A DNA stretch of 12,851 nucleotides from a virus: UHGV virus genome UHGV-0102871. The stretch is one strand, 5' to 3'. The position numbers were made by a program, and so were the translations under genes. The notes under the pieces were generated by a model, which saw only the letters and a program-made list of their open reading frames with translations, did no database searches and was not told where the DNA came from. Below are positions 264 through 6,157 of the stretch, in pieces (the stretch's first letter is position 1; each line of letters begins with the position of its first letter).

Positions 264-688
264 AGGATGGACTCCATTTCGTCGATGTAGAGGCCCTGAG
301 CAATCAGGCGGCTACGGCGGGCGGCACGGGCTATGCACTCCTGCCGTCTACCTTCCTGCGATTGCTCAATGGCGCGCCGGGTGAACAGGCGCGATTTGCC
401 CTGCGGCGTCACAACCTTCGGCTTCGTGACCAGGTCGAAAGTCCGGTCGCAGATGCCGTCCCCGTTGATCCACTTTTCCGACTCAACGATCTGCGCTATC
501 TGTCCGGAGCCGCGGGTAATACCGTTGGCTACCCGGTTAAACTCGATGAGCGTTACGCCAAACTTCTCAGCGATTTCGCTGCCGGTTACCGGGCGGCCGC
601 GCGTCTGAATCATCCAGATAACGCGCTCACGAAGGCCGGAGAATTGCCCGGTGCGCCCTGGCCTGCGGTAAAATGGTGTGCGTTTCAT
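260..688 (-). CDS. Hypothetical phage protein (142 aa), possible HTH DNA-binding protein
   Basis: ORF-track ORF. ATG at 688-686 overlaps the exo stop (ATGA). Basic protein with an HTH-like stretch (TGSEIAEKFGVTLIEFNRV). Function not recognised. Confidence 0.6.
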   Translation of the reverse strand: MKRTPFYRRPGRTGQFSGLRERVIWMIQTRGRPVTGSEIAEKFGVTLIEFNRVANGITRGSGQIAQIVESEKWINGDGICDRTFDLVTKPKVVTPQGKSRLFTRRAIEQSQEGRRQECIARAARRSRLIAQGLYIDEMESIL

Positions 689-1302
689 GCTGCACGCTCT
701 GTGATTTTCTGAATTTCCGATTCCAGATCTGCAAGGAAGCTCTTAACCTCAGATTCGATTTCGCGCGCCAGCTCTTCATCGAAATGAATCCGCTTCTTGA
801 AATAGGCGAGGTCAGGCGGCAGGCGATCATCGAAACTAACGAAATCACACCATTTCCGCCCGGTGCACATCATCTGTGCATGCATTTGCAGCATGTACTG
901 GCGCTTTGGCTCACCAGTTTTCAGCGTTTCAAGATGGGTCCAGGTGTTGGGGCATTTGATTTCGATAAGCCCGTCGTCGTTGACAAGTCCGTCCGGGCTG
1001 GCTGCGAATCCGGGTATGGTTGGGTGATCGATGAGCCCAACTTCAGTGATTGCCGCATTGAACTCATTCAGCGCGTACATTTCGCGTGCCACTGGCTCAA
1101 GTTCAGTGCCGCGCATCATCGCGGCATTCGAAAACCCTTCCTCCAGCTTCCCGGTCAGCCGTTGGCAAATCAGCTCGGCCATGTAGTTCTGGCGGCTGGT
1201 GGAGTAGCCCGACTTAGTCCGGGCCATGACATCAGCCAGGCGACTGGCTGTGACCTTGCCGCAGCGCGCAGCAAACCATTCAGGGGTGCGTTGCTCTATC
1301 AT
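685..1302 (-). CDS. exo: Lambda Exo / YqaJ-family 5'-3' exonuclease (205 aa)
   Basis: Translation carries YqaJ/lambda-Exo hallmarks (WFAARCGKVTASR; SPDGL...GLIEIKCP; YMLQMHAQMMC). Sits immediately downstream of bet with ATGA stop/start overlap, as in the lambda Red operon. Confidence 0.85.
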   Translation of the reverse strand: MIEQRTPEWFAARCGKVTASRLADVMARTKSGYSTSRQNYMAELICQRLTGKLEEGFSNAAMMRGTELEPVAREMYALNEFNAAITEVGLIDHPTIPGFAASPDGLVNDDGLIEIKCPNTWTHLETLKTGEPKRQYMLQMHAQMMCTGRKWCDFVSFDDRLPPDLAYFKKRIHFDEELAREIESEVKSFLADLESEIQKITERAA

Positions 1303-2045
1303 TCAGCCTCCGTCTCTGCGACATTGACAGGTTCGGCGTTGTCGACAGCAAGACTCATGTCATACATGCGTCGTTTCTCAACTGCGCCGATCACCTGTTT
1401 CTCTTCGGCGCTCAGCGCCACCCAGAACTCCTGATACTTAACGGTTCCAAGGCGCGCGGCGGACTCACCTTTTGCGATCAGTTCCGGGCGGCGGCTATCT
1501 GATTCATGGCCCGCATGAACCTCTGCCGTTGTTCCTTCAATTACTCGCTCTGCCTCGTCCTGGTCGAAGATGCCAGCGAAACCAAAGGCCAGACGCGCGC
1601 ACTGGATCAGCGTCTTGTGGCGAAGCATGCGGGTAGGGTGGGACTGCCATGGCTGAGTGTTGCGTTTGCACTCTCCCATGTACTCGGTGACGATGGTCGG
1701 GTGCTTACGGTCTTTGCGGTAAATCTTGCAGGTACACGCGCCTTCCTCCTTGTCGTAAGAGAACTCCATGCCGTCAAACTGAGGATGCTCGTTGATAATG
1801 CGAGCCCATCCATCAACGCCGACGACCGGGACAATCCCGCCTTTATCTGGGAATGCGTAAATCTCTTTGGTCCATGGGTTCAGGCCGTACTGGTTGGCGA
1901 CGATCAACAGGGCTGTAAACTGCTCGTCCGTGACGTTGCCACCTTTGAACGCTGTATTCTTCAGCGTATTCATCAGGTCTGTACCGGCATCCATGCCGAG
2001 GCGTGCGGCCAGTTTCCCGGCCATGGTGGAAAGTGCAGTACTCAT
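1299..2045 (-). CDS. bet: Bet (RecT/Red-beta family) single-strand annealing protein
   Basis: From the internal Met, MSTALSTMAGKLAARLGMD... LIVANQYGLNPWTKEIYAFPDK... PVVGVDGW... RMLRHKTLIQCARLAFGFAGI closely parallels lambda Bet as recalled. Start placed at ATG 2045-2043 with GAGGGA Shine-Dalgarno 7 nt upstream; the ORF-track ORF extends to 2060. Confidence 0.9.
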   Translation of the reverse strand: MSTALSTMAGKLAARLGMDAGTDLMNTLKNTAFKGGNVTDEQFTALLIVANQYGLNPWTKEIYAFPDKGGIVPVVGVDGWARIINEHPQFDGMEFSYDKEEGACTCKIYRKDRKHPTIVTEYMGECKRNTQPWQSHPTRMLRHKTLIQCARLAFGFAGIFDQDEAERVIEGTTAEVHAGHESDSRRPELIAKGESAARLGTVKYQEFWVALSAEEKQVIGAVEKRRMYDMSLAVDNAEPVNVAETEAE

Positions 2046-2063
2046 TGTTAAATCCCTCAAAAA

Positions 2064-2348
2064 TTAAAACGGGCAGCCGGTACGGTGTTCCCAGTCGTAT
2101 TCCGCCTGGGCGTAAGCAACTACCGAAATGAAATCGTTGTAGGCCTCGCCAGCTTTATCGCTGCGAAGCCCTTCGTATGGGCTGGAGTCTATCGGGATCG
2201 TGAAGTGGAAGAGGCCGGACGGCTCTTTAGGCATCATGTCGATGATTTTCTGCGCCCGGTCGTCGATCCACTTCTCTTTCTCGTCGGTGATCTGTTGCTC
2301 AGCCCAGCGCCGATCTTCGATGCGGTCGTAAGTGAGGTATGCGTTCAT
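2064..2348 (-). CDS. gam: Gam-like host-nuclease (RecBCD) inhibitor, short form (94 aa)
   Basis: N-terminus MNAYLTYDRIEDRRWAEQQ resembles the internal-start region of lambda Gam ([21 protein letters not shown], recalled). Position directly upstream of bet matches gam-bet-exo order. TGAGG Shine-Dalgarno upstream. Confidence 0.75.
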   Translation of the reverse strand: MNAYLTYDRIEDRRWAEQQITDEKEKWIDDRAQKIIDMMPKEPSGLFHFTIPIDSSPYEGLRSDKAGEAYNDFISVVAYAQAEYDWEHRTGCPF

Positions 2349-2355
2349 GGTTGCC

Positions 2356-3327
2356 TCAGTAATGAATTTTCGCGCAGGGGATCAGGTTATCTTTCAGAGC
2401 GGTAAGCACTTCGATAGCCTGCTCGCGGGTTAAGCTGGTTTGGCTGGTGAGCGCGTTAACGATGTTGGTGCCGACCGTCTTGCGGTGCTTAACGTCAGCT
2501 TCACGCTTTGCCTGCTCATCGGCGAGGCGCTTCTCTTCGGCCAGGCGGGCATCTTCGGCCTGTTTGGCCTTCAGGCGCTCGGCTTCAACCGCCGCGGCTT
2601 TTTCGCGTTCCGCCCGGGCTTCCGCTTCCTGCTTCTCGCGAGCTGCACGCTGTTCCGCTTCGACGCGCTGGCGCTCCGCCAGTTCAGCGCGGGCTTTCTC
2701 TTCGGCTTCACGGCGCGCTGCGGCTTCAATCTCCGCTTTGTGCTTCGCTTCGGCATCGCGGCGGGCTTGTTCTGCCGCTTCCTGTTTCAGCCGCTCATCA
2801 CGTTCACGCTGAGCCTGTTCCGCCAGACGGCGCTGCTCTTCGCGGTCACGGTCAAAATCCTTGTTCATCAGTAGAGCCATTTCGTGGTCCGCTTCGAACT
2901 TGGCAGCCAGCTCCTGATCGAACCTGATGTTCATCTCCAGCGCTTCGGCGTGCATCGCGTTCATGGCTTCTTCAGCCTTAATGCGTTCCTGCTCGGCTTC
3001 CCATTCGGTGAGTGGGCGGCGGGTCGCATCGCGCAGCTCGTCGCAGGCATCAACGAATCGCTTAATTTCGGCCTCAGCCGGACGCACAGCCTCTTTCAGG
3101 CGCTTCAGGTACTCACGGCCCGGCTTTTCGATTGCCGTCTTGCTGCGGGACACCTGCGCTGCCAGAGAGGCAACACGGTCACGGCCTTTCTTCGTGGACA
3201 GGTCCGGCACTTCGTTTACAGCCTGGCGGATTTGCTCAAGGTACGCGTCAAGGCCGCCCGCTACGTAAAGCACTGGGGCCTGTTCCGGCTTGATTTCGAT
3301 GACAGTTAAGTCCGTTACTTCGCTCAT
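2356..3327 (-). CDS. Hypothetical phage protein with long charged E/R/A/K-rich coiled-coil segment (323 aa)
   Basis: ORF-track ORF with AGGAGA Shine-Dalgarno before ATG 3327. Globular N-terminal ~110 aa, then ~160 aa of low-complexity heptad-like repeats (AEQAQRERDERLKQEAAEQARRDAEAKHKAEIEAAARREAEEKARAELAERQR...), then a ~50-aa C-terminus. The several plus-strand ORFs overlapping it are composition artefacts. Confidence 0.7.
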   Translation of the reverse strand: MSEVTDLTVIEIKPEQAPVLYVAGGLDAYLEQIRQAVNEVPDLSTKKGRDRVASLAAQVSRSKTAIEKPGREYLKRLKEAVRPAEAEIKRFVDACDELRDATRRPLTEWEAEQERIKAEEAMNAMHAEALEMNIRFDQELAAKFEADHEMALLMNKDFDRDREEQRRLAEQAQRERDERLKQEAAEQARRDAEAKHKAEIEAAARREAEEKARAELAERQRVEAEQRAAREKQEAEARAEREKAAAVEAERLKAKQAEDARLAEEKRLADEQAKREADVKHRKTVGTNIVNALTSQTSLTREQAIEVLTALKDNLIPCAKIHY

Positions 3328-3397
3328 GGTTTCTCCTGAAATTTGGATGTGCAGATCCCGCCCGCGTAATGCCAGGCCGATCGGTTGAATAGGGTGG

Positions 3398-3595
3398 TTA
3401 CTGCTGCGCGATGGATTTCGCCGGGAACTCGCCGTTGCGGATGATGCTTTCTACCGGCCAGCACTCAGCTGACACTTTCTGCTCTGTAGCTGCCAGGCTG
3501 CATTCCTGCTGGCTGTCGTAAACGCCGAGAATGACATCCTGATAATCACCGTTGGTCATTGCCACGGTCAGGACGAGTGCGAATAAAGTTTCCAT
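3398..3595 (-). CDS. Small hypothetical protein (65 aa) with hydrophobic N-terminus, in the kil-like position
   Basis: Internal ATG (3595-3593) of the 83-aa ORF-track ORF overlaps the stop of the upstream 42-aa ORF (TGATG coupling). Sequence METLFALVLTVAMTNGDYQ... has a hydrophobic N-terminus. The longer 3398-3649 form cannot be excluded. Confidence 0.45.
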   Translation of the reverse strand: METLFALVLTVAMTNGDYQDVILGVYDSQQECSLAATEQKVSAECWPVESIIRNGEFPAKSIAQQ

Positions 3596-3723
3596 CAGTG
3601 AAGAGTCCTCCCGATGGCGACGGCGTAAAGGCGTTTTGCTTCTTCCCACGCCGGAGCATTGCGATGGAGCACCGCGAACGACGCGAGCCGTTGGGCCTCT
3701 CTGATCTGCTGCTGGTTTACCAT
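3595..3723 (-). CDS. Small hypothetical protein (42 aa), in the cIII-like position
   Basis: Manual translation: MVNQQQIREAQRLASFAVLHRNAPAWEEAKRLYAVAIGRTLH. Strong Shine-Dalgarno (AAGAGGAA) 3-4 nt before the ATG; stop overlaps the next start. Not in the ORF track (below size cutoff). Function unknown. Confidence 0.4.
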   Translation of the reverse strand: MVNQQQIREAQRLASFAVLHRNAPAWEEAKRLYAVAIGRTLH

Positions 3724-3864: not shown

Positions 3865-3884
3865 AAAAAACCCGCCGGAGCGGG
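3865..3884 (-). terminator. Candidate intrinsic terminator immediately after the 222-aa gene (minus-strand RNA CCCGCUCCGGCGGG + UUUUUU)
   Basis: Plus strand reads AAAAAA-CCCGCCGGAGCGGG-TCA, where TCA is the TGA stop of the 222-aa gene. On the minus strand this is a 5-bp GC stem with 4-nt loop followed by a U6 tract. Confidence 0.55.
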
Positions 3885-4553
3885 TCATTCATTCTTTGGT
3901 ATGCCGCAAAGGGCGTTTAGCGTTTCAACGGGAATGGCAAGTGCGGTGCTGGTCGCTTCACGGCGTTCCACCTCAGGCAAATATGGCACTGCCTCAGGCC
4001 ACATCTCAGCCAGTTTTTTAACAGTTGAGACTTTGGTTAGAGCACCTTTAACCTGCAATTGGAAGGCATCAACTTCATCGTAAAGAACGTTGATGGTTAC
4101 CGTCGATTCAGTGAGTCGGTCGTGTAATTTTCCAACTTTCTTCAGCGTGCTGTAACTTTCAGGAACGAAACCCGAATCAATTACAGGCGCGAAGGAAGCT
4201 CCGAAGAACAGGTCGCTTTCAAGATCGTGCTTACCAATATGTTTTCCACGGTGGCGATAGCGATGATCCAAACCGTTCCTGGCTAATTCGTGATACTCAC
4301 CATTAATAATGACCTTTAAAGTTGCAGTTTTAGCGCCGACCTGCATCTTGATGAAGGAGTTATCTTTGAAATCTTCCCGAGCCTTAGTTATTTGCTCATC
4401 GCTAGTGTTTTCCTGCTTGAGCAATGCCTGTCGAATTTCTTCAACAATTTTCGCCCTCTCATTAACCGCAGCTTTCGCTTTCTCAAACAATGGGGATGCG
4501 AGAAGCAGGTTATGGCATAGCTGATTTTTAATTTCGTTGTTAAGACGAATCAT
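3885..4553 (-). CDS. AT-rich orphan gene (222 aa), unknown function; first gene of the leftward operon, in the sieB/ral position
   Basis: ORF-track ORF with GAGGGT Shine-Dalgarno 7 nt before ATG 4553. Visibly lower GC than flanking genes (by eye, not computed). Soluble-looking, no recognised domain. Bracketed by a ~400-bp leader upstream and an intrinsic terminator downstream. Confidence 0.75.
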   Translation of the reverse strand: MIRLNNEIKNQLCHNLLLASPLFEKAKAAVNERAKIVEEIRQALLKQENTSDEQITKAREDFKDNSFIKMQVGAKTATLKVIINGEYHELARNGLDHRYRHRGKHIGKHDLESDLFFGASFAPVIDSGFVPESYSTLKKVGKLHDRLTESTVTINVLYDEVDAFQLQVKGALTKVSTVKKLAEMWPEAVPYLPEVERREATSTALAIPVETLNALCGIPKNE

Positions 4554-5129: not shown

Positions 5130-5807
5130 TTATGGGATGTTTAGTATTTTGGCATCAACCACAACGCCGATGATTTTGCAGTTTCCATTAATTTCTAGCA
5201 TTGGATATGCGGGGTTAAGGGGCTTTAGGAAGCGTCTGCCGGCATCGATTACAAGCTTCTTAAAGGTCGCTTCGTTATCGCCTTCTAGCTTCGCGACAAC
5301 CAGCTTTCCGTTGCGCGGCTCGACTTCAGGATCAACAAGTATCGCTGCTCCCTCGGGTATGCTCAGTCCAGCCGGGGAGGTCATAGAATCCCCTTTAACG
5401 TCCAGCCAGAATGAATCTTCTGAGCAGTCAACAGTCGTGTCATACCAGCGATCTATCGCTCTTCGGTGATAAGGTTCTACAGCTTCCATCCATTGCCCCG
5501 CGCTTACCCAGCTGATTACAGGATAACTTCCTTTTGTCTCGTTCAGTCCTCGAAATGCAACGTTCGAAGGTTCTTCACTGGCGTGTAAAACATCCATCCA
5601 GCCAAAAGGCAGATCAAGCGCAGTTTCAATTTTGCGAGCCATCTTATCGCCGATATTGCGATGAGGGTTTGGTCCCAGTAGCTGGCTAAGCGCAGCCGGA
5701 CTTGTCTCGATGAGCTCGGCAAACTGCGCTTTGGTCATTCCAGACTCGTGCTGACGCTTCTCGTACAGCGCTTCCAGGTTGGCTTTTCTGATTTCTTTAT
5801 TTTCCAT
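5130..5807 (-). CDS. cI: cI-like prophage repressor (HTH N-domain plus LexA/S24 peptidase C-domain), 225 aa
   Basis: C-terminal domain carries the S24 Ser/Lys dyad context (DVKGDSMTSPAG ... ATFKKLV) and LexA-like strands (GAAILVDPEVEPRNGKLVVAKL; KIIGVVVDAKI). N-terminus is HTH-like. Start set at the internal ATG 5807-5805 (MENKEIRK...) just left of the operators; the ORF-track ORF extends to 5924. Confidence 0.85.
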   Translation of the reverse strand: MENKEIRKANLEALYEKRQHESGMTKAQFAELIETSPAALSQLLGPNPHRNIGDKMARKIETALDLPFGWMDVLHASEEPSNVAFRGLNETKGSYPVISWVSAGQWMEAVEPYHRRAIDRWYDTTVDCSEDSFWLDVKGDSMTSPAGLSIPEGAAILVDPEVEPRNGKLVVAKLEGDNEATFKKLVIDAGRRFLKPLNPAYPMLEINGNCKIIGVVVDAKILNIP

Positions 5808-5824
5808 ACCTGCATTGTTACTGC

Positions 5825-5893
5825 TTTTAGCAAAATGATAAATGTGCAAATTGCTAAATGATGCTTGCGTAGTATTTAGCATAACGCTAAACT
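5825..5893. promoter_or_regulatory. oR-like operator cluster with divergent pR/pRM region between cI and cro
   Basis: Sites TTTTAGCAAAATGATAAAT (5825-5843) and ATTTAGCATAACGCTAAAC (5874-5892, 13/14 palindromic) share the oL half-site. Candidate pR: -35 TTGCGT (5865-5870), 17-bp spacer, -10 TAAACT (5888-5893); the stronger operator overlaps the spacer and -10. GGAGA Shine-Dalgarno precedes the cro-like ATG at 5924. Confidence 0.55.
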
Positions 5894-5923
5894 CCAAATC
5901 AAACGACTCACCCGGAGACACCA

Positions 5924-6157
5924 ATGAGCACTGAACTACACCGCTGGCGCAAGGCCGCCACTACCGACGAATGGGCGCAGCTCGCAAAGTTGGCTAACAC
6001 GACGCCAGGTTACCTGGACCAGATCGCCTACGGAAATCGCCGGGCATCTCCAGAAATGGCATCTGCTATCGAGAAAGGCACGAAGAATTTTCACCGCCAG
6101 GCTCCGGTCCTAAAAGAAAGCCTGGTATTCGCATCGCCGCGTGATACTGCGGCCTAA
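5924..6157 (+). CDS. Cro-like HTH regulator, YdaS-family (77 aa)
   Basis: Divergent from the repressor and first gene of the rightward operon. Motif GYLDQIAYGNRRASPEMASAIEKGT matches the YdaS-type Cro-like HTH pattern as recalled (YL.Q...G.R..SPEMA.AIEK.T). Confidence 0.7.
   Translation: MSTELHRWRKAATTDEWAQLAKLANTTPGYLDQIAYGNRRASPEMASAIEKGTKNFHRQAPVLKESLVFASPRDTAA

Follow-up and report, generated by a model that had tools for sequence, protein, structure and literature searches.

UHGV-0102871 is a virus genome of 12,851 nucleotides (hereafter the window) that holds the immunity and early-left region of a lambdoid Escherichia coli prophage; strain NCTC9040 matches it at 99% identity over 76% of the window length. 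Reading away from the cI repressor gene, the minus strand carries in turn an Nmad5-family gene, a DUF1482 gene, an agt-like gene, gamL, bet/recT and exo (Table 1). The agt-like gene, an open reading frame (ORF) at 2356-3327, is the subject of this study. A first-pass annotation, made from the letters alone, had singled it out as a 323-amino-acid protein with a long charged segment lying next to gam, and in both respects it was accurate, as the frame is ATG-initiated with a well-placed AGGAG and the adjacent gene encodes GamL. On sequence and gene order, this ORF is identified as agt in an early-left operon of the phi80 type, and as such it has already been named.

Table 1. Coordinates of the agt-like gene, the regions of its product and the surrounding early-left features of the window.
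Feature	Position	Strand	Basis or remark
agt-like gene, orthologue of phi80 agt (PHI80_40)	2356..3327	minus	ATG start, 323 amino acids plus stop; phrog_1376
Shine-Dalgarno AGGAG	3333..3337	minus	5 nucleotides before the agt ATG; direct sequence reading
Conserved N-terminal domain, residues 1-112	2992..3327	minus	two short predicted helices cap the start of a long helix
Residues 113-162	2842..2991	minus	less conserved; continuation of amphipathic helix 1 (to 151), then low-confidence linker 152-162
Predicted ER/K-type single alpha-helix, residues 163-283, ~18 nm	2479..2841	minus	composition, charge pairs, AlphaFold2
C-terminal mini-domain, residues 284-323 plus stop	2356..2478	minus	alignments
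gamL, host nuclease inhibitor	2064..2348	minus	NF033500 phi80_GamL, E = 7.5e-45; phrog_1050; RefSeq name 'host nuclease inhibitor GamL'
bet/recT single-strand annealing protein gene	1299..2060	minus	Pfam RecT, E = 4.4e-28; phrog_252; RefSeq 'bet'
YqaJ/lambda-Exo-type recombination exonuclease gene	685..1302	minus	Pfam YqaJ, E = 1.1e-25; RefSeq 'lambda exonuclease family protein'
DUF1482 gene, context only	3398..3649	minus	directly upstream of agt; PF07358, E = 5.4e-24
Nmad5-family ('nucleotide modification associated domain 5') gene	3885..4553	minus	early-left operon, between cI and the recombination block
LexA-like cI repressor gene	5130-5924		

The window protein is 81% identical to phi80 Agt, the product of PHI80_40 (BLASTP, E = 1e-154), and over residues 1-160 the identity reaches 98.8%. 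This orthologue surfaced through a tblastn search of phage genomes, while a match to phrog_1376, a family labelled 'unknown function', spans residues 1-323 (E = 4.7e-100). The two proteins are of near-equal length (322 amino acids in phi80, 323 in the window) and their genes occupy the same place, directly upstream of gamL and then of genes for a single-strand annealing protein (SSAP) and an exonuclease, so that the order agt-gamL-SSAP-exo is common to both. In the phi80 GenBank record JX871397, PHI80_40 is entered as 'agt: anti-toxin for Gam; Mog (modifier of Gam)' and the next gene as 'gamL: host RecBCD/SbcCD enzymes inhibitor; toxic without Mog', and the phi80 orthologue is thereby annotated as neutralising the toxicity of GamL. 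The earlier statement that the protein is 'not a recognised Red or Kil component' does not survive this match, and the clear homology to a known phage protein family of established function, which was said to refute the observation, is largely in place.

Previous work on phi80 points the same way. Rotman and colleagues, in an abstract of 2012, reportedly described gamL as a toxic gene whose product inhibits both RecBCD and SbcCD. The same abstract is said to present agt as 'its own antidote', located nearby and 'apparently encoding a modifier protein', and phi80 lysogens reportedly behave as recD and sbcCD phenocopies. A 2025 survey of lambdoid recombination modules (Genome Res 2025, PMC12315714) credits GamL to Rotman et al. 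2012 (J Bacteriol 194:6802) and gives its mechanism as unknown; agt goes unmentioned there and does not figure in its list of genes of these modules.

The likeness to phi80 has limits. The last ~40 residues of the window protein represent another allele of the C-terminal domain (C-domain), where DNA identity falls to ~35%, and the window GamL is only 52% identical to that of phi80. Furthermore, the window SSAP is of the Bet type (phrog_252) whereas that of phi80 is of the RecT type, and the window has neither the kil gene nor PHI80_41 between the upstream genes and agt. Among 5,426 complete E. coli genomes agt is carried by 104, and in all eight entries among the matches listed RefSeq calls its product a 'hypothetical protein'.

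An AlphaFold2 model built on a 90-sequence alignment (mean predicted local distance difference test score, pLDDT, 88.8) lays the protein out as a short cap at the N terminus, a helix of ~16 nm (46-151), a low-confidence linker at 152-162, a second helix at 163-296 of ~20 nm with pLDDT >90, and a small C-terminal element. The N-terminal domain (N-domain; pLDDT 91.7) carries the motif EVPDLsTkKGRxRvASLAAqVSrSKTAiEKPGReYLK...LRD..RrPLTEWE, within which, across the alignments, K63, G70 and K78 are invariant and D42, T45, G48, S54, R103, P105 and E110 nearly so. The C-domain of ~40 residues is likewise conserved, with the family consensus HR..iN......L...G.tEEqAK.vi.AIa.G.vp.v.I.Y ending on a near-invariant tyrosine (Y323). 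Between these two domains the family varies, and many relatives have one to three extra helical inserts of ~60 amino acids in the part that corresponds to residues 113-162, ahead of the ER/K helix. Two of them (P0197 and P0199) hold 2-3 copies of such an insert (..W/FEEFE..A...K..AL) alternating with ER/K stretches.

The charged segment at residues 163-283 consists to 55% of Asp, Glu, Lys and Arg and to 26% of Ala, with just 8% hydrophobic residues. The best heptad phase fills only 11% of its a/d positions with hydrophobics, and opposite-charge pairs at i/i+4 number 37, against 18 ± 3.2 in shuffled sequences, none of 2,000 of which reached 37. As heptad hydrophobics are missing and potential i/i+4 salt bridges are doubled relative to the shuffles, the segment looks like an ER/K single alpha-helix (SAH) as judged from composition and the structural model; a canonical coiled coil was rejected on the a/d occupancy and the hydrophobic content. 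The ~160-residue E/R/A/K coiled coil described at first was therefore right as a long charged helix and wrong as a coiled coil. Its extent also differs, as the strict ER/K-type stretch covers ~121-134 residues, or ~178 helical residues if the less charged part at 106-162 is counted. The first helix (46-151) is of another kind, being amphipathic with 37-45% a/d occupancy, and could serve in packing or dimerisation. Neither a transmembrane segment nor a signal peptide was detected in Agt (maximum 19-residue hydropathy 0.69), nor was any enzyme domain, and the protein matched no model of Pfam, NCBIfam or PADLOC.

Could such a low-complexity frame be decaying, or meaningless altogether? Its charged centre and the several long ORFs antisense to it might suggest so, but the ORF was intact in 243 of the 243 homologous loci examined, which disposes of the degenerate state in relatives that had been envisaged as a reason to dismiss the gene. 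Selection was analysed in the phi80-like clade (81 genes, all intact), where the ratio of non-synonymous to synonymous substitution rates (dN/dS) was 0.08 in the N-domain, 0.19 in the middle region, 0.18 in the ER/K helix and 0.32 in the C-domain. Indels in this clade are all in frame and fall mostly within the ER/K helix (298 of 309 indel cells), with protein lengths running from 276 to 363 amino acids. In addition, the gene has a strong ribosome-binding site, and a HMMER scan with residues 1-160 matched 4,230 clusters at 50% identity (E ≤ 0.001), 1,236 of them at E ≤ 1e-10. The agt-like ORF is real, intact and under purifying selection, and the probability of decay or of a meaningless frame is vanishingly small.

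The underlying DNA had been called repetitive and GC-rich, with multiple spurious ORFs on the plus strand. The spurious ORFs are indeed there: five frames of 113-144 amino acids lie antisense to agt, none of the five with a PHROG family match. The content of guanine and cytosine (GC) is also high, at 0.64-0.65 against ~0.53 across the window; it follows from the Ala, Arg and Glu codons, as GC at third codon positions (0.61) is not raised. Repetitiveness in the usual sense was not supported, since Tandem Repeats Finder returned nothing on the agt DNA and the repeats present are short imperfect direct ones of 16-29 nucleotides with 66-88% identity.

Members of the Agt family are mostly 300-390 amino acids long. 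ER/K character is kept among them while the sequence is not, with at least 60 such residues in 82 of 90 members (median 118). The two ends of the gene assort independently, N-domains of 100% identity occurring with C-domains of 26-31%, and N-domains of 71-73% with C-domains of 93-95%; the helix-coding DNA is therefore also a site of crossovers. The difference between the window and phi80 is the same mosaic of N and C alleles with a crossover in the helix-coding DNA, DNA identity being 0.85-1.00 over the first 660 nucleotides and 0.35-0.38 over the last 120. There is no Pfam or NCBIfam model for the family, and when 90 relatives, and likewise the 10 longest ones, were scanned with Pfam, neither a family nor an added domain turned up. 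One relative (P0257, 427 amino acids) joins the Agt N-domain to an unrelated C-terminal half with a GSGKS P-loop-like motif.

To describe the genomic context, 80 viral contigs were taken from each of three clades (phi80-like, Sf6 gp33-like and Pseudomonas D3 orf53-like), and linkage was counted in those 222 loci where the sequence continued downstream for 2.5 kb or more. An SSAP gene begins within 1 kb past the agt-like stop in 209 of these 222 loci. At least eight SSAP families are found in this position, namely Bet/RecT phrog_252, RecT phrog_148, phrog_2449, Erf phrog_1097, three Erf phrog_155 groups and Sak4. The linkage extends to 11 of 12 distant phages inspected from alpha-, beta- and gamma-proteobacteria: Sf6, D3, Shewanella ZP9, Vibrio BT-1011, Sinorhizobium phiLM21, Serratia Eta, Iodobacter PhiPLPE, Alcaligenes Piluca, Aeromonas 62AhydR11PP, Pseudomonas PfDIW6 and Yersinia 21.09. 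The one exception, a Vibrio phage with a weak hit, had no annotated recombination genes nearby. This linkage suggests an accessory function in recombination or in the modulation of host nucleases, broader than the phi80 record implies.

The 13 loci without a recognised SSAP all belong to the phi80 clade, and in 12 of them GamL is followed by a 170-amino-acid phrog_21613 protein and then by Exo. The phrog_21613 gene thus sits in the SSAP slot between GamL and Exo (L049:7267-7779; also L011, L018, L023 and L033, and further L038, L053, L059, L060, L073, L077 and L078), and its product may be an unrecognised type of annealing protein. Elsewhere, an RdgC-like gene (phrog_724, 'exonuclease recombination-associated') directly follows the agt-like gene in Shewanella ZP9 (L245:4480-5382) and Iodobacter PhiPLPE (L253:4564-5466).

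If Agt were a dedicated antitoxin that binds GamL directly in the style of type II systems and has no other role, as the phi80 wording 'anti-toxin for Gam' and 'toxic without Mog' would have it, the two genes should travel together. They do so in part: in the window they are 7 nucleotides apart, and GamL follows agt in 46 of 67 phi80-clade loci. However, the same holds for only 1 of 77 Sf6-clade and 0 of 78 D3-clade loci, Agt is found without GamL in 176 of 222 loci, and, among the 169 phage records matched by the Agt N-domain, at least 104 have hosts of genera in which GamL gave no hit at all. Even close relatives of the window protein, 75-97% (up to 97.2%) identical to it, adjoin Erf modules and lack a GamL gene within 6 kb; Abc2 is present in some of these GamL-less loci, whereas no recognised anti-RecBCD gene was seen in others. 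Conversely, HK639 has a GamL 92.6% identical to that of the window directly after kil and no agt, and Stx2a phages show the order kil, a 93-amino-acid protein, GamL and RecT, again without agt. Neither the N nor the C alleles of Agt co-vary with the GamL type, as a given Agt allele may be accompanied by GamL proteins 100% or ~52-56% identical to that of the window. Furthermore, Agt has no DNA-binding autoregulatory domain, and at 323 amino acids it is unlike the typical small antitoxins. As judged from this distribution, agt and gamL are separable modules with no sign of co-variation, and we consider a dedicated GamL antitoxin unlikely.

The 93-amino-acid protein that precedes the agt-less GamL in Stx2a-converting phages, after Kil, belongs to phrog_1635 (L251:2699-2980) and could be an alternative GamL partner.

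The architecture of Agt, its pattern of conservation, the place of its gene in the operon and the linkage to recombination modules are shown directly, the counteraction of GamL toxicity is taken from the phi80 record, and the mechanism is inferred. We favour, at about an even chance, a reading in which Agt acts as an accessory adaptor of the recombination module that in this prophage also tempers GamL. The physical description that belongs to this reading, and that we hold with the same balance of confidence, is of a non-enzymatic, almost entirely alpha-helical and very elongated cytoplasmic protein. Agt is most likely not a GamL-specific binder, because the family accompanies all module types with or without GamL and because a single Agt allele can be combined with widely divergent GamL alleles. 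The family tracks recombination modules and not GamL, and a constant target is therefore more likely; this could be host DNA-end machinery (RecBCD, SbcCD or SSB) or the DNA ends themselves. The conserved N-domain would make contact with this target, the ER/K helix would act as a rigid spacer of ~18 nm, and the C-domain would allow the protein to self-associate (dimerise) or to make a second contact. In the window prophage, the outcome would be a softening of the GamL block on host nucleases during phage annealing recombination. An earlier suggestion of a structural spacer or scaffold, or of a partner of host recombination or division machinery, is largely in keeping with this, as it fits the ER/K architecture, the linkage to recombination modules and the phi80 GamL record; no link to cell division was found.

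Several points weigh against the accessory-adaptor reading. The sole functional statement on agt consists of the GenBank annotation and one abstract, no binding partner of Agt came from any experiment or computed model here, and no fold or profile match points to a function. The AlphaFold2 helix runs unbroken through a conserved Pro-Gly (69-70) and the conserved Pro105, and in reality this domain could fold into a bundle of helices or form an oligomer. The SSAP linkage may be due in part to the way in which lambdoid early-left operons keep their gene order, rather than to function. Finally, the separability of Agt and GamL is also compatible with two unrelated roles of Agt, or with an indirect antidote effect in phi80.

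We put forward more tentatively, as possible but with the balance somewhat against it, a wider view in which the Agt family is a widespread and hitherto uncounted core companion of temperate-phage recombination modules in alpha-, beta- and gamma-proteobacteria. Its members would serve as ER/K 'rulers' with the N-domain on host DNA-end machinery or DNA ends, and the antidote effect on GamL in phi80 would be one local consequence.

A related proposal would make Agt a tether or scaffold for DNA ends, in which C-domain dimers hold two ends, or two SSAP-ssDNA (single-stranded DNA) complexes, tens of nanometres apart, with the effect on GamL being secondary; the long arms of Rad50/SbcC offer a model for such spacing. 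The almost invariable SSAP neighbour, the two long helices of ~16 nm and ~20 nm and the conserved basic residues of the N-domain (K47, R49, K63, K78 and R103) speak for it. However, no DNA-binding fold or motif was detected, the matches to RuvA domain III/UBA and to HU were not significant, and a scaffold of this kind would have to accommodate at least eight unrelated SSAP families. A tether therefore appears distinctly improbable.

Searches for remote relatives gave little. PDB sequence searches with the protein and with the alignment profiles A1, A3 and A4 returned nothing significant, the best match for the C-domain being a RuvA domain III/UBA-like one at E = 0.11, which was taken as a generic helix-Gly-helix resemblance and rejected. 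An HU-like C-domain, the top Foldseek row, was also rejected (hhalign probability 0.5%), as was the N-terminal region of RecE (Rac RecE residues 1-587; hhalign probability <1%). Two word-indexed homology searches, which returned only proteins up to ~2 times the query length and mostly fragments, added no distant families. DUF1351 and Sipho_Gp157 of Firmicutes phages have a motif resembling that of Agt and likewise precede the SSAP gene, which makes them possible distant relatives; example sequences sought in phi11, TP901-1 and A118 gave no obvious candidate.

The agt stop codon and the gamL start are separated by TGAGGCAACCATG (2349-2355), and the sole GA-rich element at this junction overlaps the agt stop. 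From the short gap and the placement of this element, translational coupling of agt and gamL is probable. Together with gamL, bet and exo, agt forms one transcribed block. A simple promoter scan found no sigma-70-like promoter between cI and bet on either strand; independent expression of agt in a lysogen is therefore not supported by the scan. A strong hairpin with a T-run resembling an intrinsic terminator lies at 3869-3886 (minus strand), just after the Nmad5 gene and upstream of the DUF1482-agt-gamL-bet-exo block. RefSeq places the start of bet at the ATG at 2045.

The gene directly upstream of agt had been described as kil-like. This label finds no support here, as its product is a DUF1482 protein in which no similarity to the Kil proteins of phi80 and HK639 was detected. 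RefSeq calls the DUF1482 gene 'cell division protein FtsZ' (also at L002 3807-4016), which looks like a misnomer.

For the window itself little changes, since the gene is the named phi80 gene agt beside its known partner gamL. The observation that drew attention to it was real but describes a known gene, one that is already named and partly characterised genetically. The residual value lies in the family, which is large, has neither model nor annotation, and is a near-universal neighbour of unrelated annealing recombinases, while relatives are mislabelled as TolA, tail fibre or envelope proteins. Should an accessory function be confirmed, recombineering toolkits could benefit from it, as could our understanding of how phages handle RecBCD and SbcCD.

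Such labels bring in the first of the known systems with which Agt can be compared. Relatives entered as 'TolA protein', 'cell envelope biogenesis protein' or 'putative tail-fiber protein', together with a weak tape-measure PHROG match (E = 0.0015), could be taken to indicate a structural protein of the envelope or the virion, similar to TolA or to a tape-measure protein. Agt does share with TolA a long helix rich in Ala, Glu, Lys and Arg, and the labels are what compositional matches to Ala/Glu/Lys-rich helices would produce. However, Agt lacks the membrane anchor and the C-terminal domain of TolA, and is encoded as a cytoplasmic protein among early phage genes of the recombination region, far from the structural genes. 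Membership in TolA was rejected on the hydropathy maximum of 0.69 and on Pfam hits in 0 of 90 members, which also yielded no other Pfam domain. A structural role in envelope or virion is very unlikely, and these two readings, along with that of a junk frame, are effectively excluded.

The resemblance to type II toxin-antitoxin systems is one of arrangement, in that the phi80 annotation has the first of two neighbouring genes counter the toxicity of the second, which lies downstream. The differences are that agt and gamL are independent in most genomes, that the 'toxin' GamL is an inhibitor of host nucleases with a role in the phage life cycle, and that the 'antitoxin' Agt is large and without a DNA-binding domain. 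A type II module was rejected on the lack of obligate co-occurrence, with Agt alone in the 176 loci counted above and GamL alone in HK639 and Stx2a phages.

Closer in physical character are the ER/K SAH domains of myosin VI, myosin X and caldesmon and the central helix of TolA. With these Agt shares the high charge, the dense i/i+4 pairs of Glu with Arg or Lys, the scarcity of hydrophobic residues and a predicted unbroken helix of ~120-134 residues, and its length varies among relatives as would that of a spacer; the resemblance is one of composition and predicted structure, not of homology. In terms of genomic setting, the nearest parallels are abc1 and arf of P22 and the lambda gene orf. These have no sequence or fold similarity to Agt, which is much larger and dominated by long helices, but like agt they lie inside the early-left recombination module or at its margin and are non-catalytic, and in the view of the 2025 survey they adjust the ways in which phage recombination draws on host functions or avoids them (PMC12315714).

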